A DNA stretch of 63,820 nucleotides, counting the filler. It is 6 parts of 6 records of this genome, joined end to end, with 100 filler letters (N's around TTAATTAATTAA, not from the genome) between each part and the next. Parts side by side here need not be neighbours in the genome. Positions count along the whole stretch, not along the records: positions 1 to 15,900 come from SRR31156797_4497; 5 more parts are not named here. The stretch is one strand, 5' to 3'. Of the stretch, positions 37 through 16,000 are shown in pieces. The position numbers and the translations under genes were made by a program. Position 1 is the stretch's first letter; each line of letters begins with the position of its first letter. The notes below the pieces were generated by a model. The model was not told where the DNA came from. It made no database searches and saw only the letters and a list, made by a program, of their open reading frames with translations.

Positions 37-59
37 AATTTTAAAAAAACATCATACCT

Positions 60-1334
60 ATGAAATTAAAACCTACATTAATAGTGTTAGCATGCATTAT
101 CGCAATACAGACCTATGGACAATCTGAACTTATAAGTGAATTAAATAAGAATATAACCAAAATAGAAAGCGTTACACCTGACGGTAATTTTAACGACCTC
201 AACTCTTTACAAAGTGTTTTTCAAGACAAAGAAATTATAGGACTTGGAGAAGCAACTCATGGAACACATGAATTCTTCACATATAAACATCGAATGGTAA
301 AATACTTAGTAAAGAATGAAAACTTTAAGGTATTTATTATTGAAGGTGACTTTGCAGGTTCTCAAGCTATGAATGAATACGTGGTTCATGGAAAAGGAAC
401 GCTAATGGATGGCCTTAAGGGTATTGGGTATGGAGTTTGGTTTAGAAAAGAGTTTGTGGACTTTGTTGAATGGATTAAAGAATATAACCAAGATAAACCC
501 ATAGAGGACAAAGTTAAATTTTATGGCTGTGATATTAATAATGAAGTTTCAGTAGCGCAACGCCTAAAATCGTTTTTAGGAGAAAATAATAGATTGAATA
601 ATTCATTAAATGAAGGATTAGAAATAATAATACAGCGTCAACTACGAAAAAAACTTTCGGAGGAAAATTCTACTTATGCAGAAGAAGTTATTTCAGAACT
701 CAGCGATGCTTTTACTAGTATTAAAGAATGCCGTAAAAAAATACTTATGCAACAATGCAAAAGAGAATTGGAACAAATATTTGAAATAATACAGGCAGAT
801 GACAAAACAAGCATTGTACTGCGAGATAAATTTATGGCAGAAAATATAGAATGGGTATATAACCATGAAAACATGCAGAAAACTGTTTTTTGGGCACATA
901 ACGAACATATTAAGAACGATAAAGCCAAATCGTATCAGAAACCAACAGGCTACTATCTAAAAGAAAGATTTGGAGATAATTATTATTCGTTTGGATTTGG
1001 ATTTTACGACGGTGAAGTTGCCGGTTACAACTGGAAAGAAAAGAAATATGATAGTTTTAAAGTTCCAGCAATGTCATCAAAGAAGTTAACAGACGCAGTC
1101 TTTAGCGAATGCATTTACCCCAATTTTATTTTAGATTTAAGAACTACTAATTCGAATGATATAATAAGTAAGTTTTTTAATGCCAATTTATATCAACGCA
1201 CGATAGGTGCAGGTTTTCACCCAGACGGAAAAAAGCAAAATCATTTTCGGATGGGAAAATTGATTGATAAATATGATGGTTTAATATTCTTTAGAGAAAC
1301 AAATCCATCCAGAGTTATAGAAAAAACAGCATAG
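60..1334 (+). CDS. Erythromycin esterase family protein with signal peptide (cassette 1)
   Basis: IIGLGEATHGTHEF, RDKFMAEN, WAHNEH and YDGLIF motifs of the Ere family; hydrophobic N-terminus. Confidence 0.85.
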   Translation: MKLKPTLIVLACIIAIQTYGQSELISELNKNITKIESVTPDGNFNDLNSLQSVFQDKEIIGLGEATHGTHEFFTYKHRMVKYLVKNENFKVFIIEGDFAGSQAMNEYVVHGKGTLMDGLKGIGYGVWFRKEFVDFVEWIKEYNQDKPIEDKVKFYGCDINNEVSVAQRLKSFLGENNRLNNSLNEGLEIIIQRQLRKKLSEENSTYAEEVISELSDAFTSIKECRKKILMQQCKRELEQIFEIIQADDKTSIVLRDKFMAENIEWVYNHENMQKTVFWAHNEHIKNDKAKSYQKPTGYYLKERFGDNYYSFGFGFYDGEVAGYNWKEKKYDSFKVPAMSSKKLTDAVFSECIYPNFILDLRTTNSNDIISKFFNANLYQRTIGAGFHPDGKKQNHFRMGKLIDKYDGLIFFRETNPSRVIEKTA

Positions 1335-1408
1335 AACAAACCGTAATAATGCATAGCTTGCCGCAGGCGCAACACAAGCCACGCATCATACGGCAGGCCG
1401 TTGTAAGC
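1329..1408 (+). repeat. attC-like site 1
   Basis: GCATAGAAC-N5-GT...; imperfect stem ccgtaataatgcatagcttg / caagccacgcatcatacgg; ATAC-N8-GTTGTAAGC; overlaps the stop codon of the upstream gene. Confidence 0.8.
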
Positions 1409-1566
1409 AAGTGTAAGAAACCGACACGACACATTGAAACTTGATTGAAATATTTTCAAAAAACGGATTGACTGGATTGGTGCTCCGTTGATAGGGCGGT
1501 GCAGTTTGAGGGAAATTTATTTTGTTTTTTCTCCCCCCGCACAAAGAAAAAAGAAACCCCGCCCAC

Positions 1567-1631
1567 AAAACAGCACATTTGCAAACCCCACTAGCCAACC
1601 CACAATCCAAAGTTTGCAAAAGAGCTGTTTT
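1567..1631 (+). repeat. GCACATT...AAAGAGC palindromic element, copy A
   Basis: aaaacaGCACATTtgcaaac ... gtttgcaAAAGAGCtgtttt; same motif at 10997, 11395 and 14904. Confidence 0.8.
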
Positions 1632-1647
1632 TTCCAACACTACATAG

Positions 1648-1679
1648 TCAACTGGTTTAGATATAAAATCAACTGGTTT
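1648..1679 (+). promoter_or_regulatory. Direct repeat TCAACTGGTTT x2 at 21-bp period; putative AraC-type operator
   Basis: Copies at 1648 and 1669, upstream of the AraC-domain regulator. Confidence 0.5.
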
Positions 1680-1716
1680 TTCATTAATTTGGGCTTTTTT
1701 ATTTTTATGCACATGT

Positions 1717-4608
1717 ATGATTAGGACTAAACTTCAAATATTACTTATATGCTGTCTTTTTTCAAGCATTTCTTCTAACGCTCAATCGTTAGTAAATACT
1801 GAATACAAAAACACAAAGCAACTACCAGTTGCACAAGTATTTCGAACTTTTCAGGATTCTGAGGGTTTTTTGTGGTATGGAACTCAGGGAGGTGGATTGT
1901 GTAGGGATGATGGTTATTCTGTCAAAATTTTCCGTTCAGATTGTAATACACCTGATTTATTAGAAAGCAATTGGATTACTTGTATTTCAGAAGATTTACA
2001 TCATAAAATCTGGTTTGGCACAAAACGAGGTTTATATGTTTTAGATAAAACAACCTATGAAATTCATCAAATAAAAGACCCTGACATTCAAAACTGGAGT
2101 ATTGATGCTTTATGGGCATCTACAGAAGGTAATATATGGGTATCAACAGCAGATTTAGTCATTAAATATGATTTATTTGAGAAAAAACTAGACACCTACC
2201 ATTCATTGTGGAAAGGTGAATCAAAAAGTGTTTCTCAAATTTATGAAGACCGTGATAAGAATATATGGACTGTTCAATGGAGGGGTGGGATACATAAATA
2301 TAATCCAGCAACAAATGAATTTGTTCCAATTCCATGGGAATTTGAGGAAAGCCCAACGAGTATAATTCAAGATACCGACTTGAAAAAATATTGGATTTCA
2401 ACATGGGGGCAAGGTATAGTAGAGTTTAATCCCAATAATACAGGAGAGCCATGTTTTACGTTACACAATTCCACAAAGGGAAATCGGGATGATTCAAAAA
2501 GATATATTTTAAATTTAACAACAGACACTGTTTTAAATTACATTTGGGCAGCTACTGTAGATAACATTTATGCTTACAGCAAGAGTCAAGACCGCCAATT
2601 AACCAATATCAATATTGACAAGTACTTACCCTCTGGTAAGTTATTAGTGAACCAAATAATAACTGACAAACAAGGGAATTTAAAAATATCAACCGATTAT
2701 CCTCATTCTTTCACTCTATCGTTTAGACAAAAAAACTTTCTAGCAGAAAGCATTAACCAAGATGTAAATACTTTTGGCTTACCAATTGCTCCTGTCGTTT
2801 TTTCTAACAACAAAAATAATTATTGGTTTTGGCAAAAACGCCAAGGACTCTTTCTTTATAATACGAAAATTGGCAAACTAATATCACTATCTGAATTACC
2901 AGGGCTGAATGGTAGAAAGAAATCCATCCTTATAAAAAAGGCAACGGATGATGATGGCATATACACTGTATTAGATGATACAGTTGTCGTAAAACTTCAT
3001 CCATCAGGAGCAGGTAACGTAACATTGGAAAATGTTATCGAAATTCCTTCTTCAGAACGGATTCATAGCCTCAGTCAAGACCAAAAACATAACTTATTGA
3101 TTGGAACTCAAAACACCCTGTTTTATTACAACTTTGCCATCGGAAAATTAACAAAGAGTTCTATAAACGTTGGTGTTATTAATGACATAACAACAAGCAA
3201 TGGATTAGTATTCTTAGCAACAGAACAATCAGGATTGTGCATGATTGATACAACTGGTAGCATTCATGAAATTGTTATGGACAAAAATTTTTCGTCAATT
3301 GCAAATGCTTCTAATCGGTTTATATGGTCTGGAACCGAGCAAGGCGAAGTTTTTATCTATGATATTTTAAATAATAAAACATCACAGATAAAGGAACTTT
3401 TAGGCTTAAACGGTGATGCAATCATTGATTTAGAAGTTGACAGCTCAGGTTTAATATGGATTTTAACCAACCAAAAAGTTATTATTTACAATCCTGAACA
3501 AAAAACAACAAATTCCTATTACAGTTCTGAACCTGATATTTCAATGAATAATTTTTATTCATTAGGCAAAGATGCAAAAGGTCAGATTATTATTGGTGGC
3601 ATGGATGGTTTTCGTCGTTTTGTATCACATAGTAGTTTGAAAAATGAATCAAAAACACAACACGTAAAGCTTACTTCATATTCAATTAATGGAAATCATA
3701 AACTAGTTGGAATTGAAAATAGCATATTAGAATTACAACCGAATGAACGAAATTTAGTACTAAATTTTTCCACATTTGACCATCTTCATACCGGTAAAAT
3801 ACGTTTCGCTTACCGTTTTAAAAATCAACACAGTAATTGGCAATACTTGCCTGATGGCATTAATAGCTTGTCATTAACCGGACTCTCGAAAGGATTGTAT
3901 CAGATAGAGGTCCACGCTACTAATGCAACTGGTCAGTGGAGTAATCAAATATCTTTGTTCTCTTTAAAGGTTTTACCATACTGGTACGAATCAATTATTG
4001 CTTTTATTATTTATTTGCTACTGCTAATTGCATTCATCGTATTATCAATCCATATCTACTTAAACCGTAAAAAGCAAAAGTTAGCTAATGAACAAATCCG
4101 TAATAGTGCTTTAGATTTAAGAGATTGGTTGTATCAATTATCTGGTGAAATGGTTTCGTCTGAATCTTCAGAACCTAATTTAAAGTCTTTGCTTTTAGAT
4201 ATCAAAAAACAGCTTCAGAATCAAAAAACAGAGAATAAGGGTGATGAGCAACAAGGCTTCATTTCTAATATTTCAGCCTCCGATGAAAAATTCATCCAAA
4301 AAGCACTTCATTTTGTTGAGTCGAATATCGATTCTACTAACTACTCGGTAGAACAGTTAAGCAAAGATTTAGGAATGGACAGGACAGGCTTATACCGGAA
4401 ACTTATCAGTATTATGGGTAAATCTCCTACAGACCTTATTAAATCCACTCGATTAAATCGAGCGAAAAAACTATTGAAAGGAGGTTATACAGTATCAGAA
4501 ACAGCCGACTTGGTAGGATTTGGCACTGCCAGCTATTTTAGCAAATGCTTTAAAGATGAATTTGGGGTAAAACCTTCGAGATATACTGACAACCAAAATA
4601 ATACATAA
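1717..4608 (+). CDS. Membrane-anchored sensor/AraC regulator (HTCS-like beta-propeller, Y_Y_Y domain, TM helix, AraC HTH; no kinase or receiver domain apparent)
   Basis: QDSEGFLWYGT/DGY propeller repeats, Y_Y_Y-like segment (IRFAYRF...GLYQIEV), TM helix after LPYWYES, C-terminal YSVEQLS...GFGTASYFSKCFKDEFGVKPS. Confidence 0.85.
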   Translation: MIRTKLQILLICCLFSSISSNAQSLVNTEYKNTKQLPVAQVFRTFQDSEGFLWYGTQGGGLCRDDGYSVKIFRSDCNTPDLLESNWITCISEDLHHKIWFGTKRGLYVLDKTTYEIHQIKDPDIQNWSIDALWASTEGNIWVSTADLVIKYDLFEKKLDTYHSLWKGESKSVSQIYEDRDKNIWTVQWRGGIHKYNPATNEFVPIPWEFEESPTSIIQDTDLKKYWISTWGQGIVEFNPNNTGEPCFTLHNSTKGNRDDSKRYILNLTTDTVLNYIWAATVDNIYAYSKSQDRQLTNINIDKYLPSGKLLVNQIITDKQGNLKISTDYPHSFTLSFRQKNFLAESINQDVNTFGLPIAPVVFSNNKNNYWFWQKRQGLFLYNTKIGKLISLSELPGLNGRKKSILIKKATDDDGIYTVLDDTVVVKLHPSGAGNVTLENVIEIPSSERIHSLSQDQKHNLLIGTQNTLFYYNFAIGKLTKSSINVGVINDITTSNGLVFLATEQSGLCMIDTTGSIHEIVMDKNFSSIANASNRFIWSGTEQGEVFIYDILNNKTSQIKELLGLNGDAIIDLEVDSSGLIWILTNQKVIIYNPEQKTTNSYYSSEPDISMNNFYSLGKDAKGQIIIGGMDGFRRFVSHSSLKNESKTQHVKLTSYSINGNHKLVGIENSILELQPNERNLVLNFSTFDHLHTGKIRFAYRFKNQHSNWQYLPDGINSLSLTGLSKGLYQIEVHATNATGQWSNQISLFSLKVLPYWYESIIAFIIYLLLLIAFIVLSIHIYLNRKKQKLANEQIRNSALDLRDWLYQLSGEMVSSESSEPNLKSLLLDIKKQLQNQKTENKGDEQQGFISNISASDEKFIQKALHFVESNIDSTNYSVEQLSKDLGMDRTGLYRKLISIMGKSPTDLIKSTRLNRAKKLLKGGYTVSETADLVGFGTASYFSKCFKDEFGVKPSRYTDNQNNT

Positions 4609-4627
4609 AGCATATAACAAATCAAAA

Positions 4628-4662
4628 TCAACCATTTTACAGTTTTTTTCAACCATTTTACA
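4628..4662 (+). promoter_or_regulatory. Direct repeat TCAACCATTTTACA x2 at 21-bp period; putative regulator binding site for the GH43 genes
   Basis: Exact 14-mer at 4628 and 4649 in the intergenic region before the GH43 cluster. Confidence 0.6.
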
Positions 4663-4738
4663 CGACTAGTGAGTCTACATTATATTGTTTTGTGTTTTGT
4701 AATCGATATTATTAACAATATAAAACTTGGAAAAAGCA

Positions 4739-5812
4739 ATGCAAAAAAGAGTTTATTTTTTAATGATGACCGCAATAGTTTTATTCTTTCAATGGAGCTG
4801 TTCGCATAAATCATCTAAGAAAGAGCTATCCGAAAATGAGATGAAAGCCTACTTGCTAGTTTACTTTAAGGATAGCGACCATGCTTTACATATGGCACTC
4901 AGTTCTGATGGGTATTCGTTTACCGATATAAATAATGGCAATCCGGTTATATCCGGAGATACTATTTCTATGCAAAAAGGTATTCGTGACCCACATATTA
5001 TGCGAGGTCCCGATAACCTATTTTACATGACAATGACCGACCTGCATATTTATGCCCAACGGGAAGGATTGCGAAATACAGAGTGGGAGCGCCCCAGAAA
5101 CGAGTTTGGTTGGGGTAATAACAGGGGATTTGTTCTAATGAAGTCTGCCGATTTAATTAATTGGTCGCACACCACAGTTGCAATCGATGAAACCTTTGCT
5201 GGTTATGATTCTATCGGCTGTGCCTGGGCACCTCAAACAATTTGGGATGATAAAGAAGGGAAACCTATGTTATATTATAGTATGCGCTTTTATGACGGAA
5301 CAATTCGTTTGTTTTTTAGCTATACAAATATTGAGTTTTCTAAATTGGAGACAGAACCCAAACTTCTTTTCCAATATCCGAAAGACCTAACTTATATAGA
5401 CGGAGATATTACCAAGGCAAACGATAAATTTCATCTATTCTATGTTGCCCATGATGGCACACCGGGCATTAAACAGGCTGTTTCTTCATCCATTAACGAG
5501 GGGTATTCATATGACTCTGTTTGGTATGATTCAGAAGCAGTAAAATGCGAAGCACCTAATATTTGGAAACGTATTGGTGAAGATAAATGGGTACTAATGT
5601 ACGATATCTATGGATTAAAGCCTGCCAATTTTGGATTCAGAGAAACCTCCGATTTTAAAACATTCACCGATTTAGGACGCTTCAACGAAGGTGTTATGAA
5701 AGCAACCAATTTTCAAATACCCAAACATGGCGCCGTAATTCAGCTTACTAAAAAAGAAGCTGAGAAGTTAGCCAAATACTGGCAATTAGAAATGACGTTT
5801 GATAAACTTTAA
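4739..5812 (+). CDS. Glycoside hydrolase family 43 lipoprotein
   Basis: GIRDPHI, CAWAPQ, YIDGDI and CEAPN five-bladed-propeller motifs; lipobox-like QWSC; ATG at 4739 preferred to TTG at 4727. Confidence 0.8.
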   Translation: MQKRVYFLMMTAIVLFFQWSCSHKSSKKELSENEMKAYLLVYFKDSDHALHMALSSDGYSFTDINNGNPVISGDTISMQKGIRDPHIMRGPDNLFYMTMTDLHIYAQREGLRNTEWERPRNEFGWGNNRGFVLMKSADLINWSHTTVAIDETFAGYDSIGCAWAPQTIWDDKEGKPMLYYSMRFYDGTIRLFFSYTNIEFSKLETEPKLLFQYPKDLTYIDGDITKANDKFHLFYVAHDGTPGIKQAVSSSINEGYSYDSVWYDSEAVKCEAPNIWKRIGEDKWVLMYDIYGLKPANFGFRETSDFKTFTDLGRFNEGVMKATNFQIPKHGAVIQLTKKEAEKLAKYWQLEMTFDKL

Positions 5813-5913
5813 AAGATTGGAATTATGAAACGAGCCATGAGCATACCTTTTCTTACAAAGGATAATGACGACTGGCAAGTTCCATCTGACCATTGAAAAT
5901 AAATTATAAACAG

Positions 5914-8337
5914 ATGAAAAACACATTAATCATACTATTATTAGTTTTTAAGACAGGACTTATACTTGCACAAAACTATCCTCAGGTAATCCTTCGTGGC
6001 GATTACCCCGACCCGACTATTATCCGTGATGGAAGCGACTATTATATGACGCACTCAAGTTTTGTTTACAATCCGGGATTCCTGATTTGGCATTCAACGG
6101 ACTTAATTAACTGGGAACCAATAGCCAGAACTATGACAAAAATTAAAGGTTCGGCATATGCTCCCGATTTGGTAAAATACAATGGAAAGTATTACATCTA
6201 TTATCCATCTGCCGGTACAAATTGGGTTATCTGGGCAGATGATATCAGAGGCCCTTGGAGTAATCCCATTGATTTAAAAGTTGAAAGAATTGACCCCGGA
6301 CATGTTGTCGATAAAAAAGGGAACCGATTTTTACATTTAAGCAAAGGTCTTGTTGTACCATTAACAAAAGACGGACTAGCTACCAAAGGTGAAGCAACAA
6401 AAACGTACGATGGATGGGAATACCCAAAAGAATGGGTAACTGAGTGTTTTTGCCTTGAATCACCTAAATTAAATTATAAAGATGGTTATTATTACCTCAC
6501 CAGTGCCCAGGGTGGAACGGCTGGCCCGGCAACCAGTCATATGGTGGTGTCAGCTCGCTCTAAAACACCTGTTGGTCCTTGGGAAAATTCACCTTACAAC
6601 CCAATTGTGCATACATGGTCGCCATCTGAAAAATGGTGGTCAAAAGGTCATGGTACTCTTATTGATGACATAAATGGTGATTGGTGGATTGTTTATCATG
6701 CATACGAAAACGGGGCTTATACCTTAGGACGCCAAACATTGATAGACCCCATTAAATGGACAAGTGACGGATGGTATAAATTGGACGAAAACCGGGAACC
6801 CCTGCCCTCCCAAAATCCTCAAATAGGCATGCAACTTTCTGACTCTTTCTCAACAAATAAACTTGGCATTCAATGGACAACGTGGGGTGGTTATAAAGGC
6901 GATGATATTACATTTTCCAATGGCAGCCTGTTTTTAAAAGGAAAAGGTGATACCCCGGGATATGGTCGTAAACTGCTTATTACTGTACCTGACAAAAATT
7001 ACCAAATAGAAAGTGAAATTACCCTAAACGAGGGTGGTTCAGGAGGCTTAATTTTATTTTATCGTGAAAATGCTTTTGCCAGTATTACCTCTGATGGGGA
7101 GTCTTTTACAATAAACGATAGGGATAAAGAAGTTGATAACATTGATTCTGAATTTGGCGACCATTTTTTTCTAAGAATCATTAATCAGGCAGATTTGTGT
7201 ACTATACAGGCAAGCAAAGATGGTAAAATATGGCTTACGTTAAAGAATTATCTTGATGTTTCAGGTCTGCACCATAATAATTACAGAGGGTTTTATGCCT
7301 TAAGAGCTGGTTTAGTAGCTACACACAATGCAAAAGTAGAATTCAAATATTTTAATTATACTGCTGGTAAATTAGCTCCAAAGCCTGTATTTCGTGACCC
7401 GGTTTACGATGGTGCTGCCGACCCGGTTGTAATTTGGAATCCATTGGTTAGCAAGTGGTGGATGTTTTACACCAATCGTAGAGCTACTGAAACTGAATTG
7501 CCAGGTTATAGTTGGGTATTTAAAACACCTATCGGAATTGCAGAATCTGACGACGGTGCCAATTGGGATTACGTAGGAATTGCGAATTTTCCAAATCTCC
7601 CTCCGGAAGCAGGAGGCGACAGTGCAACTTTATGGGCACCGGATGTTATTTACGGTGAAGATGGTAATTGGCACATGTTTTTAAGTATTCAAGCAGGTAT
7701 TGCTGAACACTGGGGCAAAGTTCCCGGTTATATCGACCACTTAACCAGCTATAACCTTCGGGATTGGCAATATAAAGAACGCTTCAATCTTCCGGTTGGC
7801 AGCTACGATGCCGATGTAATTAAGATGCCTGACGGTAAATGGCGTATGTATTACAAAGACCCATCAAACCATGCTTCAACCTTCTATTATCTTGAAAGCA
7901 CCGATTTAAATAACTGGTCAGCCCCAACAAAAGTAATGTCAACAAAAGGTGAAGGCCCTGCCGTTTTTTATTGGAAAGACTATTATTGGATGATACTTTG
8001 TGATGGAATGGGCTTTAAAACATTTCGTTCTAAAGATGCAAACGAATGGGAATTGCAACCCGGAGGCCCTTTAATGCCGGAAGGTTCAGGAACAGGATCC
8101 GACGATGTGGCAACGGCACGCCATGGTGATGTTGTAATCAGCAATGGCAGAGCCTATTTTTATTATTTCACCCATCCCGGCCAGGTTGGAGAAGACACAA
8201 AGAAAGACGGTTTCGAACAACGTCGTTCTTCAATTCAGGTGGTTGAGCTAAAGTTGAAAGATGGATGGATTGTTGCAAATAGAGATAAACCGACGTTCGT
8301 AGATTTGGAAATGCCTAAAATTAATCGTTTAAAATAA
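5914..8337 (+). CDS. Two-domain GH43 (xylosidase/arabinofuranosidase-like) fused to a second GH43-like propeller
   Basis: YPDPTIIR, YAPDL, IDPGH and LESP in the N-terminal module; beta-sandwich; second module with AADPVV, LWAPDV, YDADV and GEGP; ATG at 5914. Confidence 0.85.
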   Translation: MKNTLIILLLVFKTGLILAQNYPQVILRGDYPDPTIIRDGSDYYMTHSSFVYNPGFLIWHSTDLINWEPIARTMTKIKGSAYAPDLVKYNGKYYIYYPSAGTNWVIWADDIRGPWSNPIDLKVERIDPGHVVDKKGNRFLHLSKGLVVPLTKDGLATKGEATKTYDGWEYPKEWVTECFCLESPKLNYKDGYYYLTSAQGGTAGPATSHMVVSARSKTPVGPWENSPYNPIVHTWSPSEKWWSKGHGTLIDDINGDWWIVYHAYENGAYTLGRQTLIDPIKWTSDGWYKLDENREPLPSQNPQIGMQLSDSFSTNKLGIQWTTWGGYKGDDITFSNGSLFLKGKGDTPGYGRKLLITVPDKNYQIESEITLNEGGSGGLILFYRENAFASITSDGESFTINDRDKEVDNIDSEFGDHFFLRIINQADLCTIQASKDGKIWLTLKNYLDVSGLHHNNYRGFYALRAGLVATHNAKVEFKYFNYTAGKLAPKPVFRDPVYDGAADPVVIWNPLVSKWWMFYTNRRATETELPGYSWVFKTPIGIAESDDGANWDYVGIANFPNLPPEAGGDSATLWAPDVIYGEDGNWHMFLSIQAGIAEHWGKVPGYIDHLTSYNLRDWQYKERFNLPVGSYDADVIKMPDGKWRMYYKDPSNHASTFYYLESTDLNNWSAPTKVMSTKGEGPAVFYWKDYYWMILCDGMGFKTFRSKDANEWELQPGGPLMPEGSGTGSDDVATARHGDVVISNGRAYFYYFTHPGQVGEDTKKDGFEQRRSSIQVVELKLKDGWIVANRDKPTFVDLEMPKINRLK

Positions 8338-8346
8338 AAAATTATT

Positions 8347-9723
8347 ATGAAGGTATTAGACCTTAAAAAAATTACTTTATTTGGACTATTTCTGTTGGCT
8401 TATCTGGGAGTTATAGCTCAAAACCCAATAATACAATCTAAATACACGGCTGATCCGGCACCAATGGTCTATAACGACACCGTATTTCTTTTTGTAGGTT
8501 GTGATGAAAAAGATGCTCCTGCAAACAGATATCTTATGCGAGAGTATCATTTGTATACAACCACAGATATGGTTAACTGGACAGACCATGGCGCACCATT
8601 AAAGACAAGCGATTTTTCATGGTCGCTAGGTGATGCCAGTGCCGGACAATGTATCGAACGAAATGGAAAATTCTACTTTTACATGTCTACCATGAATAAA
8701 AACATTCGGGGAGTTTCTATTGGAGTGGCTGTGGCAGATAGTCCTTATGGACCATATAAAGATGCTCTGGGGAAAGCCCTGATAACAAACGATATGACCA
8801 AAGCTGCCCACCACTCATATGATGATCTTGATCCAACGGTTTTTATCGATGATGATGGACAGGCGTATCTGTATTGGGGAAATGGCGTTTGTTATTGGGT
8901 GAAACTAAATGACGACATGGTTTCAATTAATGGTGATATTACGGCTTATGATAAAAATGACCAAGCCATATTTGGAAAAGGATTTACGGAGGCTCCGTGG
9001 GTATACAAACATAACAAACTGTATTACATGATTTATGCTTCCGGCTTTCCGGAATCTATTCATTATTCAACAAGTAAATACATAACTGGACCGTGGAAAT
9101 ATAAAGGCGTTATTATGCCATTGGAAAAGGGCAGCAACACCAATCATCCGGGAATTATCAACTATAAAGGAAATGCTTATTTCTTCTATCACAACGACGA
9201 CCTGCCCGGCGGACATAGCTATTGCCGCTCGGTATGTGTTGAACAATTTAAATACAACAACGATGGAACGATTCCTGAGCTGACCATGACAAGCGGAACT
9301 CGAAAAGCAGTTGCAACTTTAGATCCATATAAAAGAAATGAAGCAGAAACCATAGCTCGGAGTGCAGGTATTACTGTAGAAGGTGATAAAAAGTATGGAT
9401 GTTTTGTTTCCTCTATTCATGATAGTGATTATATAATGGTTCGGAATGTTGATTTTGGCGTAAGAGGGGGCGAAAAATTTATTGCGACTACTTCAAGTAG
9501 ATATCATGGAGGTACAATAGAGATTAGAACAGATTCTATTGATGGAGCATTGCTTGGCATCTTAAAGACACGCTACACCGGAGAATGGGGAAATTGGGCT
9601 ACACTTTCCGTTGATGTGAAACCTGCTGTCGGAATCCATGATTTATATTTTATATTTCGAGGGGGTAAACCTTATGAACTTTTTTATTTCGACTACTGGA
9701 AGTTTAATGAATCATCAAAATAA
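8347..9723 (+). CDS. GH43 glycosidase with C-terminal CBM6
   Basis: TADPAP, DLDPTVFIDDDGQAYLYWG, FTEAPW and TNHPGI motifs; C-terminal NEAET...VDFG...GIHDLYFIF...FDYWKF. Confidence 0.85.
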   Translation: MKVLDLKKITLFGLFLLAYLGVIAQNPIIQSKYTADPAPMVYNDTVFLFVGCDEKDAPANRYLMREYHLYTTTDMVNWTDHGAPLKTSDFSWSLGDASAGQCIERNGKFYFYMSTMNKNIRGVSIGVAVADSPYGPYKDALGKALITNDMTKAAHHSYDDLDPTVFIDDDGQAYLYWGNGVCYWVKLNDDMVSINGDITAYDKNDQAIFGKGFTEAPWVYKHNKLYYMIYASGFPESIHYSTSKYITGPWKYKGVIMPLEKGSNTNHPGIINYKGNAYFFYHNDDLPGGHSYCRSVCVEQFKYNNDGTIPELTMTSGTRKAVATLDPYKRNEAETIARSAGITVEGDKKYGCFVSSIHDSDYIMVRNVDFGVRGGEKFIATTSSRYHGGTIEIRTDSIDGALLGILKTRYTGEWGNWATLSVDVKPAVGIHDLYFIFRGGKPYELFYFDYWKFNESSK

Positions 9724-9744
9724 CTTCTATAGAATGAATGTTTT

Positions 9745-9905
9745 TATTACTTTACCCTTCCCGGCCAGGTTGGAGAAAATAGAAAAAAGATGGATTTGAC
9801 CAGCGTCGCTCATCCATACAAGTTGTTGAATTAAAATTACAAGACGGATGGATAATAGCAGATAGGGATAAATCAAGTTTTATCCAGATGTCAAAACTTT
9901 GGTAG
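9745..9905 (+). pseudogene. Frameshifted remnant of a paralog of the 3' end of the 5914-8337 gene
   Basis: YYFTLPGQVGENRK-(-1)-DGFDQRRSSIQVVELKLQDGWIIADRDK versus YYFTHPGQVGEDTKKDGFEQRRSSIQVVELKLKDGWIVANRDK (8161-8289). Confidence 0.85.
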
Positions 9906-9920
9906 TAGTCTATAGGAAGG

Positions 9921-9990
9921 GTACAATTGTACGGGTCGATATTGAAGAATGCTTTTATCATATTAATCCAACGTACAATTGTACTAGTCG
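9921..9990. promoter_or_regulatory. Two copies of the perfect palindrome GTACAATTGTAC, each followed by nnGTCG, 52 bp apart
   Basis: Copies at 9921-9932 and 9973-9984. Confidence 0.45.
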
Positions 9991-10083
9991 TAACGATAAT
10001 AACTACATCTTTTTTTCGTTATATTTAGAATTCAGTTCTAAAATTATAGGAGAAAGAAAAGCAGTTTCAACCTGCTATGTTAA

Positions 10084-10257
10084 GAAGCAAAAGGAATTTA
10101 ATCGGAAGCAAGGGCAATGAAAGTCGAAGCAGCCCAACTACAAGAGGAAGCAGTAGAACTGTAAGCTGAAGCAATACAATTGCAATGCGAAGCAACGGGA
10201 ATGTAACCCGAAGCAACGCATTTGTAACTGGAAGCAGAGCAGATGTAAGTCGAAGCA
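10084..10257 (+). repeat. Phased array: GAAGCA x9 at an exact 21-bp period
   Basis: Copies at 10084, 10105, 10126, 10147, 10168, 10189, 10210, 10231 and 10252 with variable 15-nt spacers. Confidence 0.85.
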
Positions 10258-10318
10258 ACCAATTTGTAATTATTAATAACCCGTTTGCTGTAATGGCAGA
10301 CCTTAAAAATTAAATTTT

Positions 10319-10975
10319 ATGGCAACTAGACCGAAAAATTCCGAAGCCGATACATTAGAGCTTTATCGAGTAGCGTTAGAAAATGCAGAAACACAGTCAG
10401 AAATTGCAACAGTTATGGCAGAGTTAGGCTACGACTCCGCAAAAATCACCGAAGGTAAAACCCTTTTGACCGAGACACGTTCAGCCTACGATTTCAACAA
10501 GACCGAAGATGACGAAACCTCTGCTGCTTCAGCTTCATTCTCCGATAAAAAAGCAGAATTGGAGAAAGTTTTTAAAATGCAACGTAAAAAAGCAAAAGTC
10601 ATATTCCGTAACGATAGTTTAACCGCCGATAAATTGGCAATTTCAGGAGAAATGCCACGGACTTATATAAAATGGTTAGAAGCTGCAAAGAAATTTTACA
10701 GTGTAGCAATTACCGATACAGCTATTCAGACCAAATTGGCAAGATTAGCAATTACTGCTGACTCATTAACAGCCGCAAACACTTTGATAACTGAACTCGA
10801 AACAGCAAGAGCAGAATACTTAAAAGAAGTTGGAGAATCGCAAGACGCAACAAAAGCTAAAGATGCTGCATTCGCTAAGATGGATGATTGGATGAGCGAG
10901 TTCTACGCAGTTGCACGGATTGGATTAGAGGATAATCCACAGCTATTAGAAGCATTAGGAAAGATAGTTAAATGA
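10319..10975 (+). CDS. Hypothetical all-alpha-helical protein
   Basis: 218-aa ORF rich in Ala/Glu/Lys, with an AT-rich leader before the ATG; no motif recognised. Confidence 0.75.
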   Translation: MATRPKNSEADTLELYRVALENAETQSEIATVMAELGYDSAKITEGKTLLTETRSAYDFNKTEDDETSAASASFSDKKAELEKVFKMQRKKAKVIFRNDSLTADKLAISGEMPRTYIKWLEAAKKFYSVAITDTAIQTKLARLAITADSLTAANTLITELETARAEYLKEVGESQDATKAKDAAFAKMDDWMSEFYAVARIGLEDNPQLLEALGKIVK

Positions 10976-10996
10976 TAAAAGGGAAAGCCCACGCTA

Positions 10997-11062
10997 TTTG
11001 TAAGCACATTGGCAAGTCACACGAGCCACGCTCAGACCAAAACTTGCCAAAGAGCTTACAAA
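10997..11062 (+). repeat. GCACATT...AAAGAGC palindromic element, copy B
   Basis: tttgtaaGCACATTggcaagt ... acttgccAAAGAGCttacaaa. Confidence 0.8.
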
Positions 11063-11221
11063 GCCAGCCCTAAGTACCGCCTTTAAGGGCGGTTTGGGAT
11101 TTCCCGTCGCACAAAAAACAAAATAAATTCGTGCTCCGTATCAAGGTCAGTGCGGATTGATAAGAATAAAGATTAGATTTGTAAAAACTTGAAACAGATT
11201 GACTTCGAACAATGAACACCA

Positions 11222-11357
11222 GCTTACAACACGGTATATACAAAATGGGCGGGATTGTGCTAAAATCAAGGGCAGTAGCCCGCTTTAAAATAGTAACGGT
11301 TTGATAAGTATGTAGCCCGCAATCGCCCACATTTGCATATACCCATCCGTTGTGTTT
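11222..11357 (+). repeat. attC-like site 2
   Basis: GCTTACAAC (complement of 1400-1408); stem ggtatatacaaaatgggcg / cgcccacatttgcatatacc; ends in GTTGTGTTT. Confidence 0.8.
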
Positions 11358-11394
11358 CATGCAAAGAGAGACCGTGCAACTAATGCCAACGCAC

Positions 11395-11456
11395 ATTTGG
11401 CACATTCGCAAGCCCTAACCCACTAGCTGATGCTTCAGCTTGCAAAAGAGCCAAAT
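11395..11456 (+). repeat. GCACATT...AAAGAGC palindromic element, copy C
   Basis: atttgGCACATTcgcaagc ... gcttgcaAAAGAGCcaaat. Confidence 0.8.
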
Positions 11457-11492
11457 TTTAGCCGACGCACAGCCAGACAAAATGAACTGATT

Positions 11493-13529
11493 ATGAATAT
11501 AGAAGAATTAAATAGTGGAATTAAACAAATCGGCAAGACTTCAATAGATATCAAAGGATATTATGATAATCATGAGAAACTTGTTGAAGGCTTGAATAAT
11601 GTACCGACTGCCGAACTTGATAAGTGTCTTGATTATTACGCTTCAAGGTCTGGTGTTATCGTTGACTTACGCAAGGAACTAATTGAAACATTAAAGCGTG
11701 AAGACAAAATTACAACTGATACATTATCGGATTTGTTAAATAAGCATAGAGAAGGAAAAGAGAATCAGTTTCGAGCATATAAAAATTGGTTTTCACTTTT
11801 TTATCCACCGATAACTTTCTACGGACATAATCCGATTAGGAAATTTATAAATGAGTTCATTGAGAAGTTAATCGCTGATTTAAAACTAAATGAACATGTA
11901 AAATCTACTTTGATTGATTTTCAAGGAGCACGACAACAAGGAGCTGACCGATTATGGCTTGCACTTTATAATAATCAGCAAAAATCACAGTCTCATGGTC
12001 TACAATTTTTTGTTGAGTTCTACAATGGCACTATTAAATATGGCGTTTATCGCCATAGCAATCAAAGCTATATAAAGAAACCTGAGAATATTTCATTTGA
12101 AGATTTTGATTACAACAAAATGCTTGGATATTTCAGTCCTGAAACCGATGTAATTAAAAATGATACTCCTAAAAAGCAAGAAAGCAATAGTGAGCCTGTT
12201 CCAGAAAATGGTAACACTAATGGCTCAAAAAGCTTAAATCAAATCTTATATGGCCCTCCAGGTACAGGTAAAACTTATAATACGGTTTTAAAAGCAGCAC
12301 AGATTATTTCACCTGATTCATATATTACAGATTATGATGAAGCCTTAAAGATATTCAATGACAATCTTGGAGGCAGAATTGAGTTTATTACTTTTCATCA
12401 AAGCTATAGTTATGAAGACTTCATCCAAGGTTTAAGACCAGACGTTGAAGCGAAAGGGCAATTAAGTTTTGATAAAAAAGATGGGGTATTTACAAGAATA
12501 GCGACAGAAGCACTCTTTGAATACTACAAAAAATCAAAAAGACTTAAAGCCGAAAAGAAAGAAAGCTCTGAGAAAAAAGATGAAAACGAGGTTTATTTAG
12601 ATTTTATTGAGCATTTAAAGAACCTTGAATCAAAGGTCTTTAAATCAGCAACTGGCTCAGTCATCTCAATTACATCTTTTACAAAAAATGACAATGTTGA
12701 GTTTAAACATGCAAATAGCAGTAGAACATATTTAGTTTCAGGTAATCGCCTTTTAAAGCTATTTGAAGTATTTCCTGATATAAAGAAAATAAAGAACGTT
12801 CATACTGACATACGGGATGCAATTGGTGGTTGTAATACAACAGTATATTGGGTTGCATTGAAGGAATTTATTTCATTTTATAATAAGTATGAAAAATCCT
12901 CAGATGAGGAAAAAGAAGAGGTTTTTGAAGAAGTTAGCTACGAATCCAAAAAGAAACTACTTGCCACATTTGATTTGGAAGTACTACGAAAAATTTCAAC
13001 AGAAGATGTCCCAAATTATGTTATCATAATCGATGAAATCAATAGGGCAAATATTTCTAGAGTGTTTGGCGAGTTAATAACACTTATAGAGCCTGATAAA
13101 CGTTCTCACGGTAGAATACCATTGTCATGTACACTTCCATCAGGCGAACAATTTATTGTTCCTTCAAATTTATATCTGGTTGGAACTATGAATACTGCAG
13201 ATAAATCGATTGCACTATTAGATATTGCATTGCGACGTCGTTTTGAATTTGTTCCAATGTATCCAAATTACAACTTGGATTATGAAGCAAAAGAAGTGTT
13301 GCAATCAATAAATGAAAAAATCATAGAACTTAAAGGTTATGATTTCCAGATTGGACACGCTTACTTTATGACAGAGGACTTTAACTTAGTTGATTGTATT
13401 AACAACAAGGTAATTCCTTTACTACTAGAATATTTTCTGAATGATGAGAATGAGGTTAAAAATGTATTAACTCATGCTGGACTTGAAGTACAAGACAAAA
13501 GCTGGCCATTACAAATTACCAGCAACTAG
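11493..13529 (+). CDS. mcrB: McrB-family AAA+ GTPase (type IV restriction)
   Basis: GPPGTGKT, FHQSYSYEDF, IIDEINRAN and GTMNTADKSIALLDIALRRRF; ATG at 11493 chosen because the longer ORF starts inside the repeat element. Confidence 0.9.
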   Translation: MNIEELNSGIKQIGKTSIDIKGYYDNHEKLVEGLNNVPTAELDKCLDYYASRSGVIVDLRKELIETLKREDKITTDTLSDLLNKHREGKENQFRAYKNWFSLFYPPITFYGHNPIRKFINEFIEKLIADLKLNEHVKSTLIDFQGARQQGADRLWLALYNNQQKSQSHGLQFFVEFYNGTIKYGVYRHSNQSYIKKPENISFEDFDYNKMLGYFSPETDVIKNDTPKKQESNSEPVPENGNTNGSKSLNQILYGPPGTGKTYNTVLKAAQIISPDSYITDYDEALKIFNDNLGGRIEFITFHQSYSYEDFIQGLRPDVEAKGQLSFDKKDGVFTRIATEALFEYYKKSKRLKAEKKESSEKKDENEVYLDFIEHLKNLESKVFKSATGSVISITSFTKNDNVEFKHANSSRTYLVSGNRLLKLFEVFPDIKKIKNVHTDIRDAIGGCNTTVYWVALKEFISFYNKYEKSSDEEKEEVFEEVSYESKKKLLATFDLEVLRKISTEDVPNYVIIIDEINRANISRVFGELITLIEPDKRSHGRIPLSCTLPSGEQFIVPSNLYLVGTMNTADKSIALLDIALRRRFEFVPMYPNYNLDYEAKEVLQSINEKIIELKGYDFQIGHAYFMTEDFNLVDCINNKVIPLLLEYFLNDENEVKNVLTHAGLEVQDKSWPLQITSN

Positions 13530-13534
13530 GATTT

Positions 13535-14902
13535 ATGATAAATCTTTTCGAATATCAGAATAAAGAAACCTTTAAAGGCGATTACTCTGGACTAGAGTAT
13601 TTTCTAGATGATATCTGGAATAAAAGAGAACGCAGTTTCTTTTATGGTAATGGTGATTCTGAAAAAGTTGAAGTTCAGCGATTTGTTCAGTTCATACATA
13701 AATCTAAGGAGATTAAGTCTAATAAGTATGTTGGTGTAATTCATTTTGAAGGCGAAAAAGTAAATCTGCTACCAAAGATATTCTACGACACCAAACGGGA
13801 TTATGATGATAAAGATGTAAATGCAATTCAGCAACATATTTTATGGTATCTGAGCTATTGTAGAAAATTGAAATTCCCAAATTTCAAATCATCTTTAGGT
13901 AGCTTAAAAAATGACTTCTTTGAAATCCTAATCTATTTATTTGCTAAATACACAAGAGAGCTTCTATCGAACTCTATATTCCAGCAATATGAAGAGGTTA
14001 ACAGAGAAGTTCATAATATTAAAGGCCGATTAGATACACCAACTTATATTTCTCAAAATTTATCAAAAGCTCATTGGCATAAAGTTAGTTGCACTTATGA
14101 TTCTTTTGTAATGGACAACAAATTCAACAGAATTGTAAAGTATGTAACTAAGTTGCTTTTCAATGTCAGTACCAACTTTGAAAATAGAAAGTATTTAAGG
14201 GAGATACTATTCATCCTAGACGAGGTTAGTGATGAAAATGCAACAGCAAATGATTGTGCGAGTATAGTTTTTAATCCTATGTACAGTGAGTTTGAGACAA
14301 TTCGTGATTACTGTACTTTGTTTCTGAGTAATAGCATTTCAATTGATTACAAAAACGATTTGAAACTTTTCGCTTTTCTGTTGCCAATGGAGTATTTATT
14401 TGAAGACTTCGTATTTGGCTTCATAAATAAAGAGCTTAAAGAAATAAATGTAAAATCACAAGTTAGCTCAACTCACTTAGACGAAGGAAAGATATTCGGA
14501 TTAAAACCTGATTTATGCATTACCACACCGACAAAAGATTTTATAGCGGATACAAAATATAAAATTGCTTACTCAGAGAATAATGACCCTAAAAATGGTA
14601 TTTCACAAAGCGATTTATATCAAATGGTTGCTTATGCAATTAGATTTGAAATACAGGATATTGCTTTGCTATATCCGAGTATGCTTAAATCAAAAGATAA
14701 TGGAATGTCAACGATACAGATAAAAGATAACTTGGCGTTGGATAAAGAAATAGATATTTCAGCTCATCAGCTACCGATTATAAACTACGATTTATTTTCA
14801 ACGGAATCTGATTTTAGAAATATTGAATTAACAGAGTTGTTTAAAAAACAAAAAGATGAATTAAGAAAAAAATTAGAGGATATATTTGCCACCCCTTCGT
14901 AG
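13535..14902 (+). CDS. mcrC: McrC-family endonuclease subunit
   Basis: YVGVI...LLPK, PMEYLFEDFV, KPD...ADTKYK (PD-D/ExK) and SDLYQMVAYA; directly follows mcrB. Confidence 0.9.
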   Translation: MINLFEYQNKETFKGDYSGLEYFLDDIWNKRERSFFYGNGDSEKVEVQRFVQFIHKSKEIKSNKYVGVIHFEGEKVNLLPKIFYDTKRDYDDKDVNAIQQHILWYLSYCRKLKFPNFKSSLGSLKNDFFEILIYLFAKYTRELLSNSIFQQYEEVNREVHNIKGRLDTPTYISQNLSKAHWHKVSCTYDSFVMDNKFNRIVKYVTKLLFNVSTNFENRKYLREILFILDEVSDENATANDCASIVFNPMYSEFETIRDYCTLFLSNSISIDYKNDLKLFAFLLPMEYLFEDFVFGFINKELKEINVKSQVSSTHLDEGKIFGLKPDLCITTPTKDFIADTKYKIAYSENNDPKNGISQSDLYQMVAYAIRFEIQDIALLYPSMLKSKDNGMSTIQIKDNLALDKEIDISAHQLPIINYDLFSTESDFRNIELTELFKKQKDELRKKLEDIFATPS

Positions 14903-14903
14903 T

Positions 14904-14964
14904 CAAGCACATTGGCTGGTCGCTCAAAAAGCCAACGCACGACCAAAACCAGCCAAAGAGCTTG
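14904..14964 (+). repeat. GCACATT...AAAGAGC palindromic element, copy D
   Basis: caaGCACATTggctggt ... accagccAAAGAGCttg; begins 2 nt after the mcrC stop. Confidence 0.8.
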
Positions 14965-15004
14965 CCAACCCAATCGCACGGGCAGACTGCGAGATAAAGC
15001 ACGA

Positions 15005-15141
15005 AAACACAACAAAGTGTCATACGTAATGCGGGGAAAAGTGGTAGATTTGAATATAAGTACAATTAATAAACGGCATAGTGGTTTGATAGTTTGGAGC
15101 TTCGAAACCCGCACTACGCATACACTAGGCCGTTGTGGTTA
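15005..15141 (+). repeat. attC-like site 3
   Basis: AAACACAAC (complement of 11349-11357)-N5-GT; stem agtgtCatacgtaatgcggg / cccgcactacgcatacact with one extra base; ATAC-N8-GTTGTGGTTA. Confidence 0.8.
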
Positions 15142-15181
15142 ATCAAGAAGGAGAAACAAAGTTCCATTTTATCATCTAGAA

Positions 15182-15213
15182 TTTGATTTTTGTTCCATTA
15201 TTCGTTAACTTTG
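15182..15213 (+). promoter_or_regulatory. Bacteroidota sigma-A type promoter of the toxin-antitoxin cassette
   Basis: TTTG (15182-85)-N20-TAACTTTG (15206-13) matches TTTG/TAnnTTTG; the ATG follows 4 nt later. Confidence 0.65.
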
Positions 15214-15217
15214 TAAC

Positions 15218-15571
15218 ATGGAAACAAAAAGAAAGATTTTCTACTTCAAGAATCATTTTAGAGATTTCTTTGAAGCTCAAACTGAAAAAGTTAAGGACAA
15301 GATTGATTACGTTCTTTTCTTAGTCACTGTTGCAGAAAAGATTCCTAAAAAGTTTTTTGACAGCATGACTGGTTATGACGGACTTTGGGAAATAAGGATT
15401 GAATTCCAAAGTAATATCTATCGAGTTTTCTGCTGTTTTGATGAAGGAAGTTTAGTTGTTTTATTCAATGGATTTCAAAAGAAAAGCCAAAAGACACCAA
15501 AGAAAGAGATTGAAAAAGCAATGCGGATAAAAGATGAATATTTCGAGTTAAAAAAGAAAGGAGAGCTATAA
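15218..15571 (+). CDS. RelE/HigB-like (Gp49-type) toxin
   Basis: GLWEIRI...YRVF...VVLFNGFQKKSQKTPKKEIEKA. Confidence 0.85.
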   Translation: METKRKIFYFKNHFRDFFEAQTEKVKDKIDYVLFLVTVAEKIPKKFFDSMTGYDGLWEIRIEFQSNIYRVFCCFDEGSLVVLFNGFQKKSQKTPKKEIEKAMRIKDEYFELKKKGEL

Positions 15572-15861
15572 TGAAAAATTTAACATCATTTGACGACCAT
15601 TTAGACCAAAGATATGGTAAAATTGGTAGCGAAAAACGGACTGAATTTGAGATTAAAGCCAAAGCTTTTGCAATTGGAGAGATTTTACGTGAAGCAAGAA
15701 AAGATGCACACATGACTCAAGAACAATTAGCAGAAAAAACAGGAACAAGAAAAAGTTTTATATCTCGAATAGAAAACGGCCATAGTGATATTCAATTGTC
15801 AACGCTTTACCGATTAGTAGAATTAGGATTTGGTAAAAGAGTTAACTTGACGATAGGATAA
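15571..15861 (+). CDS. XRE-family HTH antitoxin (HigA-like)
   Basis: LREARKDAHMTQEQLAEKTGTRKSFISRIENG; stop and start overlap with the toxin. Confidence 0.85.
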   Translation: MKNLTSFDDHLDQRYGKIGSEKRTEFEIKAKAFAIGEILREARKDAHMTQEQLAEKTGTRKSFISRIENGHSDIQLSTLYRLVELGFGKRVNLTIG

Positions 15862-15866
15862 AAGAC

Positions 15867-15900
15867 TAACCACAACAATTTGTATAAGCAATAGCGGCAA
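15867..15900 (+). repeat. attC-like site 4 (left part only, cut by contig end)
   Basis: TAACCACAAC is the exact complement of GTTGTGGTTA (15132-15141); followed by N5-GTAT. Confidence 0.75.
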
Positions 15901-16000
15901 NNNNNNNNNNNNNNNNNNNNNNNNNNNNNNNNNNNNNNNNNNNNTTAATTAATTAANNNNNNNNNNNNNNNNNNNNNNNNNNNNNNNNNNNNNNNNNNNN
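15901..16000. other. Artificial contig spacer
   Basis: N-run with TTAATTAATTAA. Confidence 0.99.

Follow-up and report, generated by a model that had tools for sequence, protein, structure and literature searches.

We analysed a 63,820-nucleotide stretch of DNA (hereafter, the window) and identified in it a family of long imperfect hairpins that frame the cargo of large, integron-like gene cassettes. The window consists of six contigs joined artificially by runs of N around TTAATTAATTAA (15901-16000, 24781-24880, 31062-31161, 43443-43542 and 52436-52535). Genes on either side of a join are thus unlinked, and the cassette array considered here is confined to the single 15.9-kb contig at positions 1-15900. 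This contig is a one-directional, integron-like array of an esterase cassette, a glycoside hydrolase (GH) cassette, an mcrBC cassette and a higB/helix-turn-helix (HTH) cassette, which are separated by long imperfect palindromes that resemble attC sites. The hairpin family is real, selected and widespread, and is undescribed as far as the literature searched, Rfam and two RefSeq plasmid annotations show. We tentatively propose, as a reading that falls short of probable, that the hairpin is a joint at which cargo is exchanged within, or lost from, a reusable attC shell.

Four hairpins frame the two large cassettes

An initial annotation of the window, made from its letters alone, described four hairpins in the same orientation, one inside each end of the two large cassettes. 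We found all four in these places on the + strand:

1566..1632, + strand: 5′ hairpin of cassette 2 (copy 1), with outer stem CAAAACA/TGTTTTT, GCACATT at 1573-1579 and AAAGAGC at 1619-1625; 86.6 bits with covariance model R1
10997..11062, + strand: 3′ hairpin of cassette 2 (copy 2), 21 nt past the last stop codon (10973-10975); R1 80.5 bits
11393..11458, + strand: 5′ hairpin of cassette 3, mcrBC (copy 3), about 35 nt ahead of an in-frame ATG at 11493; R1 50.7 bits
14900..14968, + strand: 3′ hairpin of cassette 3 (copy 4); R1 68.5 bits

Each copy opens with a variable outer stem, about 7 bp long, and continues with GCACATT, an inner stem of 7 bp, a 24-27-nt loop and the partner arms with AAAGAGC. 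The core GCACATT/AAAGAGC and its two fixed A-A mismatches are invariant in the four copies, as the annotation had it. The pattern GCACATT N30-50 AAAGAGC matches five times in the window, representing the four sites (one in an overlapping register), with 0.00 matches expected from 100 shuffles. No additional copy was found anywhere in the 63.8 kb, either by a relaxed pattern scan or with R1 at E ≤ 1. Between the end of copy 1 and the ATG at 1717 are 85 nt, and the mcrC stop codon TAG (14900-14902) falls within the outer stem of copy 4. Cassettes 2 and 3 are 9.95 kb and 3.8 kb long, respectively; the two small cassettes (ere-like esterase and higBA-like) were said to have no hairpin and indeed have none.

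Folded as + strand DNA, three of the four copies exceed shuffles in stability by a wide margin (z -3.7 to -6.0; copy 1, -13.5 kcal/mol, z -5.2). Copy 3 folded alone is no better than shuffles (z -1.1) because it contains a C.A mismatch, which is a G.T wobble on the - strand.

The hairpin is conserved in structure

We scanned a stricter pattern over one genome per prokaryote species and identified at least 120 matching loci, compared with an estimated chance expectation of about 23. Nearly all are in Bacteroidota, with a few in Ignavibacteria and a few in metagenome-assembled genomes (MAGs) that carry other taxonomic labels. Together with regions of five carrier genomes, these loci yielded 170 distinct copies, and covariation was tested on an alignment of 99 of them.

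None of the 170 copies departs from A.A at the two mismatch positions. The closing G-C is replaced in 8 of the 170, always by A-T, and all other stem positions occur as several Watson-Crick pair types. In the 99-copy alignment, 91.9% of cells are paired (66.8% in shuffles), both sides have changed in 14 of 19 pairs, and the covariation score was reached by 0 of 500 shuffles; slid registers of the alignment pair at only 27-48%. The annotated co-variation of the arms, which differ in sequence yet stay complementary, extends to the 99 aligned copies. Outer stems are self-complementary (96% at three inner positions), their positions vary freely (AT, GC, TA and CG each occur), and they have no conserved AAC/GTT. 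G.U pairs are scarce (9 of 1879 alignment cells) and not enriched as in RNA stems.

The loops, which had been noted as A/C-rich, are 41% A and 40% C (81% A+C over the 170 copies). A GCCAACGCAC-like word recurs in both flanks and in the loop, with CCNAC in 97 (5′ flank), 100 (loop) and 102 (3′ flank) of the 170 copies. Covariation supports a structure under selection, formed in a single strand as the annotation had suggested. The invariant A.A mismatches and near-fixed closing pair fit recognition by a factor better than bare stability.

The hairpin is widespread in Bacteroidota

Model R1 matches 40 of 151 evenly sampled Bacteroidota genomes, with 1-9 copies each, usually as same-strand pairs 2-10 kb apart. 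A pattern search of the five carrier genomes gave about 2-9 true copies each, at a few sites. Cultured carriers include Algoriphagus antarcticus DSM 15986, Labilibaculum filiforme and Marinilabilia rubra. Genuine copies are also present on MAG contigs labelled Clostridiales, Legionellaceae, Clostridia and Mycoplasmatota (L017, L024, L054, L060). These are probably mis-binned Bacteroidota contigs, transfer being the alternative.

A search of a phage collection gave no match. At gathering score, the sole Rfam 15 match in the whole window is a transfer-messenger RNA (tmRNA), leaving the hairpin unmatched, and a search of 10950-11500 at E ≤ 10 returned only a chance match to mir-254 (E 8.6). The hairpin was not described in the literature searched or in two RefSeq plasmid annotations, in agreement with the earlier remark that it is not recognisable as a named element.

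Hairpins lie at cargo boundaries

Gaps between neighbouring hairpins are bimodal and measure either 75-533 nt (across an attC) or 1.85-9.4 kb (across cargo). Short gaps hold an attC-like site, except for the 75-nt gap of locus L073. Arrays are ordered as cargo, 3′ hairpin, spacer, attC, spacer, 5′ hairpin and next cargo. An exact GTTNNNN upstream of the hairpins with its reverse complement downstream was found in 20 of 28 testable units and in 5 of 28 controls, which bears out the suggestion that paired copies lie inside attC-bounded units. The attC boxes are nearly equidistant from both hairpins of a unit (43/39, 75/75, 166/159, 162/163 and others).

While the distance from hairpin to attC ranges from 26 to 210 nt, that from hairpin to stop codon is tight. 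A stop codon lies no more than 45 nt before 63 of the 170 copies, and the distance is 9-13 nt for 36 of these. A further 72 precede a start codon, most often by 50-75 nt, and 35 are not clearly of either class. The copies form 3′ and 5′ subtypes, and the 5′ copy lies just upstream of a promoter-like motif of the cargo. The 5′ copies have A/T-rich outer stems and more often a T-rich tail (23 of 72, compared with 1 of 60 3′ copies). TAnnTTTG, a -7-like motif that we take to be the Bacteroides -7 promoter consensus, follows 30 of 72 5′ copies, mostly 12-41 nt away, and 9 of 60 3′ copies.

Hairpins are always co-oriented with the array and positioned at operon boundaries. At L073 and L108, they keep the array direction though the adjacent cargo gene is on the opposite strand. 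L073 also contains, at 341-1137, two hairpin-bounded units, one with SIR2 plus a Piwi-domain protein and one with an inverted HU gene, separated by 75 nt that keep only a GGTAAC remnant. This arrangement looks like a cassette fusion through loss of an attC.

We observed hairpins only with cargos of at least 1.85 kb, many of which start with an HTH controller gene. Among 22 annotated hairpin-bounded cargos, 14 encode restriction-modification (R-M) or named defence domains (types I, IIG and III, MmeI, BfiI, McrBC, GmrSD, AbiE), five encode defence-like ATPase, helicase or nuclease domains, and three, including the GH cassette of the window, are non-defence. Because the cargo consists mostly of R-M and other anti-phage systems, the hairpin also marks mobile defence cassettes. 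Small cassettes of the same arrays lack the hairpin (in the window and at L130 and L121); attC sites 1 and 3 of the window, each between a large and a small cassette, have a hairpin on one side only. An Adhaeribacter plasmid (L142, 1658-13200) carries a one-directional run of transporter/ion-channel genes with a hairpin at 5648-5727 and a weak copy at 4202-4277, and may be an array with non-defence cargo.

Hairpins belong to the cassette shell

We compared the extent of homology on either side of the hairpin between loci with similar hairpins (104 pairs for 3′ copies and 66 pairs for 5′ copies). Homology extends past the hairpin into cargo for a median of 12 nt (3′ copies) and 5.5 nt (5′ copies), and into the attC-containing shell for a median of 89 nt and 19 nt, respectively. 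Homology reaches farther on the shell side in 92 of 104 3′ pairs and in 52 of 66 5′ pairs. One whole shell is common to L013, which encodes a type III R-M system, and L129, which encodes a type IIG R-M system. A near-identical variant of copy 4 lies behind unrelated cargo in L010, L029, L041, L046, L071, L101 and L113, and the copy 3 variant also precedes a type IIG R-M gene in L012.

Metagenomes contain the window shell with other cargo. In two of them, copy 2 with its spacer and attC lies behind different genes, the break falling at 10976-10987. In a soil metagenome (run X2), summed contig depth is about 100 for the backbone at 10850-11590 and about 6 for mcrBC, and many cassettes in this metagenome share the window backbone. 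Outside cassettes, none of eight McrC relatives (34-63% identity; 8 of 401 genomes) has a hairpin within 1.5 kb. The shell-side homology, the foreign genes behind the window shell and the hairpin-less McrC relatives together indicate that the hairpin belongs to the cassette backbone and not to the gene.

A wastewater contig carries the mcrBC cassette at about 96% identity, with both hairpins inside, and leaves the window at 11350 and 15133, between the G and TT of the attC-like sites. The unit seen moving between metagenomes is thus the whole cassette, cut between G and TT of attC. Another contig, X6, has 271 other letters in place of 11063-11346, perhaps a different attC module or mere divergence past the 90% threshold, and we draw nothing from it.

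Some shells have lost or not yet gained cargo

The initial annotation raised the possibility of empty cassettes with a single hairpin. We searched a metagenome collection for the shell ends of L013 and L129 at the spacing expected for a single hairpin and identified three contigs that match as cargo-less, one-hairpin shells (L144, L145 and L146). L144 and L146 carry the L013 shell without cargo and with one hairpin only. L145 contains the L129 shell with a hybrid hairpin, its left half derived from the 5′ copy (arm ATTTTTA) and its right half from the 3′ copy (arm CTGCCTT). These empty and hybrid shells place the loss of cargo, or the point where it has yet to be gained, precisely between the hairpins.

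Candidate recombinase and strand

The array contig of the window encodes no recombinase. At L009 and L078, we identified a tyrosine recombinase of 382-398 aa, with PF00589 and a SAM-like domain, that is co-directional with the array; its N-terminal extension, about 110 residues long, matches no Pfam family. Downstream of the L009 recombinase gene lie an ordinary G+C-rich, short-loop terminator, a GTTATGC box and then the 5′ hairpin; in L078, the 5′ hairpin begins about 220 nt after the recombinase gene. None of the five carrier genomes passes the cut-off of the IntI model TIGR02249 (265 bits), the best matches aligning in two separate segments, at model positions 2-179 and 239-314, that score at most 146 + 80 bits. 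Relatives of the array-type recombinase are present in 51 of the 151 sampled genomes, namely 24 of the 40 hairpin carriers and 27 of the 111 other genomes; in carriers, the gene and the hairpin often share a contig. Of the co-occurring genes that the annotation had asked after (a recombinase, an HUH or a reverse transcriptase gene), an Xer/IntI-like tyrosine recombinase was found, while no HUH or reverse transcriptase gene stood out, group II introns in attC sites aside.

Counted per 90% cluster, top-strand mismatch events were A.C in 44 cases and G.T in 19. In all four window copies, the bottom strand folds more stably than the top strand, by 0.8-4.6 kcal/mol. The rarity of G.U, the excess of A.C over G.T, the bottom-strand folding and the orientation at L073 and L108 lean towards a structure that may form in bottom-strand DNA, as for attC. 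One metatranscriptome with part of the stretch contributed three short contigs, which are uninformative on transcript ends.

A proposed joint for cargo within a reusable shell

We propose that the hairpin may act as a cis-acting, strand-specific structured element at the two points where the non-coding backbone of a large cassette meets its cargo. Like attC sites, it would fold when single-stranded, the bottom strand of the DNA being the likelier one. The 21-24 bp stem would present the invariant 7-bp core with its two mismatches to a trans-acting factor, to which the three single-stranded GCCAACGCAC-like motifs (5′ flank, loop and 3′ flank) would also be offered. Recombination between 5′ and 3′ hairpins, by a site-specific enzyme that is perhaps the array's Xer/IntI-like recombinase, would remove the cargo and leave a one-hairpin shell, and the reverse reaction would load cargo into a shell. 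The attC shell would thus persist while its cargo is exchanged or lost. The idea of a second recombination or capture site in the initial annotation is partly supported: the empty shells show cargo loss between hairpins, and a dedicated enzyme and cargo loading are proposed.

Several points weigh against this proposal. The hairpins of L013-type shells form near-identical direct repeats of about 100 nt, so empty shells could arise by ordinary homologous (RecA-type) recombination or slippage. Hybrid L145 is the single informative case, and its crossover point is undefined. In most cassettes, both hairpins share little beyond the core, and since outer stems are self-complementary, crossovers inside hairpins of different variants must be rare. 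Some 3′ hairpins have no 5′ partner detectable by model search (L133 and L128). The sole transfer seen uses attC ends, and the enzyme responsible for a hairpin reaction has a candidate, perhaps the Xer/IntI-like recombinase, rather than an identification. Because the top strand is G-poor, the mismatch asymmetry could be compositional. Lastly, the 5′ copies are terminator-like and lie just before promoter-like motifs, as a transcriptional role would predict. A search for empty shells among 175 genome-locus hairpins by their flanking 7-mers found none, but was noisy (15 matches, compared with 25 in the control) and counts neither way.

A more specific version of the proposal, which we regard as unlikely but worth stating, is that Bacteroidota arrays are two-tier: attC moves the cassette, and a dedicated single-strand hairpin site with GCCAACGCAC motifs lets a recombinase swap the multi-gene cargo. 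Such arrays would have a built-in route from operons to cassettes. This would bear on how integron cassettes are made, their origin and the conversion of operons to cassettes being unsolved problems. The hairpin marks the exact meeting of variable cargo and reusable recombination shell in about a quarter of sampled Bacteroidota species, and natural shells with and without cargo make the cassette-making question testable on defined substrates. According to a preprint by Darracq et al., Bacteroidota were previously found to have no integrons. The covariance model could locate large defence cassettes where standard integron finders reportedly see none.

Alternative explanations

The main rival explanation is that the hairpins are transcriptional insulators. 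The 5′ hairpin would block read-through that started at the array promoter or in cassettes farther upstream, just ahead of the cargo's own promoter, and the 3′ hairpin would end or stabilise the cargo transcript. Small promoterless cassettes need read-through and would thus lack the hairpin, whereas large self-regulated operons, such as R-M systems, would be shielded. The co-orientation of hairpins with the array at operon boundaries, the T-rich tails and -7-like motifs of 5′ copies, and the restriction to long cargos that often open with an HTH controller gene are all consistent with insulation. So are the C-rich, G-poor loop and flanks, as Rho-binding sites are C-rich and G-poor.

However, the 24-27-nt loops, the two invariant mismatches and a core kept across orders go beyond what an intrinsic terminator needs, and 3′ copies lack a T-run. 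The window and L122 have a separate, small G+C-rich hairpin with a T-rich tail after the 3′ hairpin, and ordinary terminators follow the L009 recombinase gene. These organisms thus use normal terminators where needed. The scarcity of G.U pairs and the hairpins of L073 and L108, which follow the array despite a cargo gene on the other strand, also argue against insulation. We consider insulation a serious possibility, though on the unlikely side. An intrinsic terminator as such (G+C-rich stem, 3-8-nt loop and T-run) does not describe the family, given its loop lengths and few T-rich tails. A terminator consensus scan did not flag the hairpins, but sigma-70/terminator consensus scans are uninformative for this phylum.

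A second explanation is that the hairpin is an accessory structure for recombination of long cassettes at attC, formed beside attC on the bottom strand. It could help attC to fold or to keep its fold, serve like an arm-type site in binding a host factor or the recombinase, or act as the primer for complementary-strand synthesis when the excised circle is single-stranded. In an excised circle, the hairpins would flank attC at near-equal distances. Their confinement to long cassettes, the hints of bottom-strand structure and the unmatched N-terminal extension of the recombinase fit this role. Yet it is the distance to the stop codon and not that to attC that is tight, an attC that separates a large from a small cassette is flanked by a hairpin on one side only, and small cassettes recombine with no hairpin. 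We consider an accessory role improbable.

IS200/IS605 elements have imperfect palindromes, in one orientation, at both of their ends. The hairpins share their imperfect palindromes, conserved mismatches and same orientation at both segment ends, but they are very unlikely to be ends or relics of a selfish non-autonomous element that spread into cassettes (whether like repetitive extragenic palindromic (REP)/RAYT systems, like IS200/IS605 palindrome-associated transposable elements, or a miniature inverted-repeat transposable element (MITE)), because they number 1-9 per genome and occur in arrays only, stay with the shell and not with the segment between, show no terminal inverted repeats or target duplications, and have no HUH transposase in about 270 Pfam-annotated flanking open reading frames (ORFs). 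The copy numbers and the confinement to arrays rule out the scattered REP or MITE family that the initial annotation had named as its alternative. IS200/IS605-type ends were likewise rejected, as homology follows the shell and no Y1 transposase gene was seen in the flanks.

Other features of the window array

The remaining cassette features of the contig are as follows:

60-1334: erythromycin-esterase-like (ere-like) gene (PF05139, E 1.6e-56), a single-gene cassette; its attC-like site begins 2 nt past the stop codon
1336..1406, + strand: attC-like site at the end of the ere-like cassette; its crossover box, at 1400, is GTTGTAA, whose complement TTACAAC opens the next attC-like site (11225)
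1717..10975, + strand: cargo of cassette 2, comprising a hybrid two-component/AraC regulator, a GH32-like gene, two GH43 genes (one with CBM6) and two unknown ORFs
11222..11355, + strand: attC-like site of cassette 2, TTACAAC ... GTTGTGT; metagenome contigs break at 11350-11351, between G and TT
11493..14902, + strand: cargo of cassette 3, an mcrB-like AAA_5 GTPase gene and mcrC (PF10117)
15007..15138, + strand: attC-like site of cassette 3, ACACAAC ... GTTGTGG; the wastewater contig with the same mcrBC cassette departs at 15133
15866..15900, + strand: start of the attC-like site of cassette 4, CCACAAC, truncated by the contig end
1520..1537, + strand: additional inverted repeat, left arm (AAATTTATTTTGTTTTTT), located between attC and the 5′ hairpin; a homologous block is present in L122
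11110..11126, + strand: right arm of the same inverted repeat (AAAAAACAAAATAAATT), between the 3′ hairpin and attC

Cassette 4 is a higB/HTH pair (higBA-like). Each window cassette starts with TTNNNN after a G, and the complementary box comes first in its downstream site (GTTGTAA/TTACAAC, GTTGTGT/ACACAAC and GTTGTGG/CCACAAC). This classical-integron arrangement of a TTNNNN start and complementary first box was thus found in the window pairs, as well as in 20 of 28 units elsewhere. We discarded a heuristic attC finder, as 3 of its 10 matches were real and shuffles gave 1-9 matches.

Cassettes with long spacers contain a third nested layer, in which a 17-nt perfect inverted repeat (AAATTTATTTTGTTTTTT / AAAAAACAAAATAAATT) is placed symmetrically around attC. 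This layer also holds a repeated GTGCTCCGT...GTGCRG block and, after the 3′ hairpin, the small G+C-rich hairpin with a T-rich tail, which in the window lies at about 11071-11095, just before the right arm AAAAAACAAAATAAATT. The layer is homologous between the window (1480-1566 and 11063-11170) and L122 (5620-5760 and 9960-10090). We rejected the idea that spacers pair along their full length to extend the attC stem, since pairing is limited to an R-box extension and one block of 17-26 nt.

Group II intron maturase fragments lie in or beside attC-like sites, on the strand opposite the cassettes, in L121 (5335-5970, 7153-7698 and 10661-11206) and in L130 (7831-8262 and 12592-12978, the latter corresponding to L029 4420-4980). 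These array introns resemble the group IIC-attC introns of classical integrons. The tmRNA gene of the window (Rfam RF00023, 257.7 bits) is at 62961-63328, on another contig.

Comparison with known systems

Long hairpins that act on one strand and depend on stem mismatches include plasmid single-strand origins, the F plasmid Frpo promoter and the phage CTX attP hairpin. The hairpin described here relates to these by analogy only, with no likeness in sequence. REP elements occur as hundreds of scattered copies and are tied to RAYT transposases. REP elements and bacterial interspersed mosaic elements (BIMEs) share with the hairpin an extragenic imperfect palindrome, conserved mismatches and a position near operon 3′ ends, but the hairpin copies are few and cassette-bound. 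A REP/BIME identity, which entails tens to hundreds of scattered copies, was rejected on the counts per genome (2-9 in carrier genomes; 1-9 in 40 of 151 genomes).

The rAID-1 clusters of Bacteroidales are co-directional arrays behind an XerD-like tyrosine recombinase, with repetitive intergenic sequences described as ‘reminiscent of integrons’ (Ross et al. 2019, bioRxiv 10.1101/471110). In the parts of that preprint considered here, rAID-1 clusters share phylum, recombinase type and co-directional layout with the hairpin arrays. The same parts describe short immunity genes and do not mention hairpin framing. This sets rAID-1 apart by text only, and its motifs, in the logos of Figure S4, may overlap with the hairpin.

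The hairpin also invites comparison with attC itself. The hairpin is not an integron attC: it has no conserved RYYYAAC ... GTTRRRY (AAC...GTT) boxes, and cassettes end at true attC-like sites, with junctions at 11350 and 15133. It also occurs twice per large cassette and is absent from small ones, whereas one attC ends each cassette at its 3′ end. The hairpin further differs in its invariant mid-stem and conserved loop sequence. With attC sites, above all the homogeneous repeats of sedentary chromosomal integrons such as those in Vibrio cholerae, it nevertheless shares an imperfect hairpin kept in structure, fixed unpaired positions and a fixed orientation. As in attC, structure is conserved over sequence around fixed unpaired bases, as the covariation and the A.A pairs attest. 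Both are conserved between unrelated cargos, and both may act as the bottom strand.

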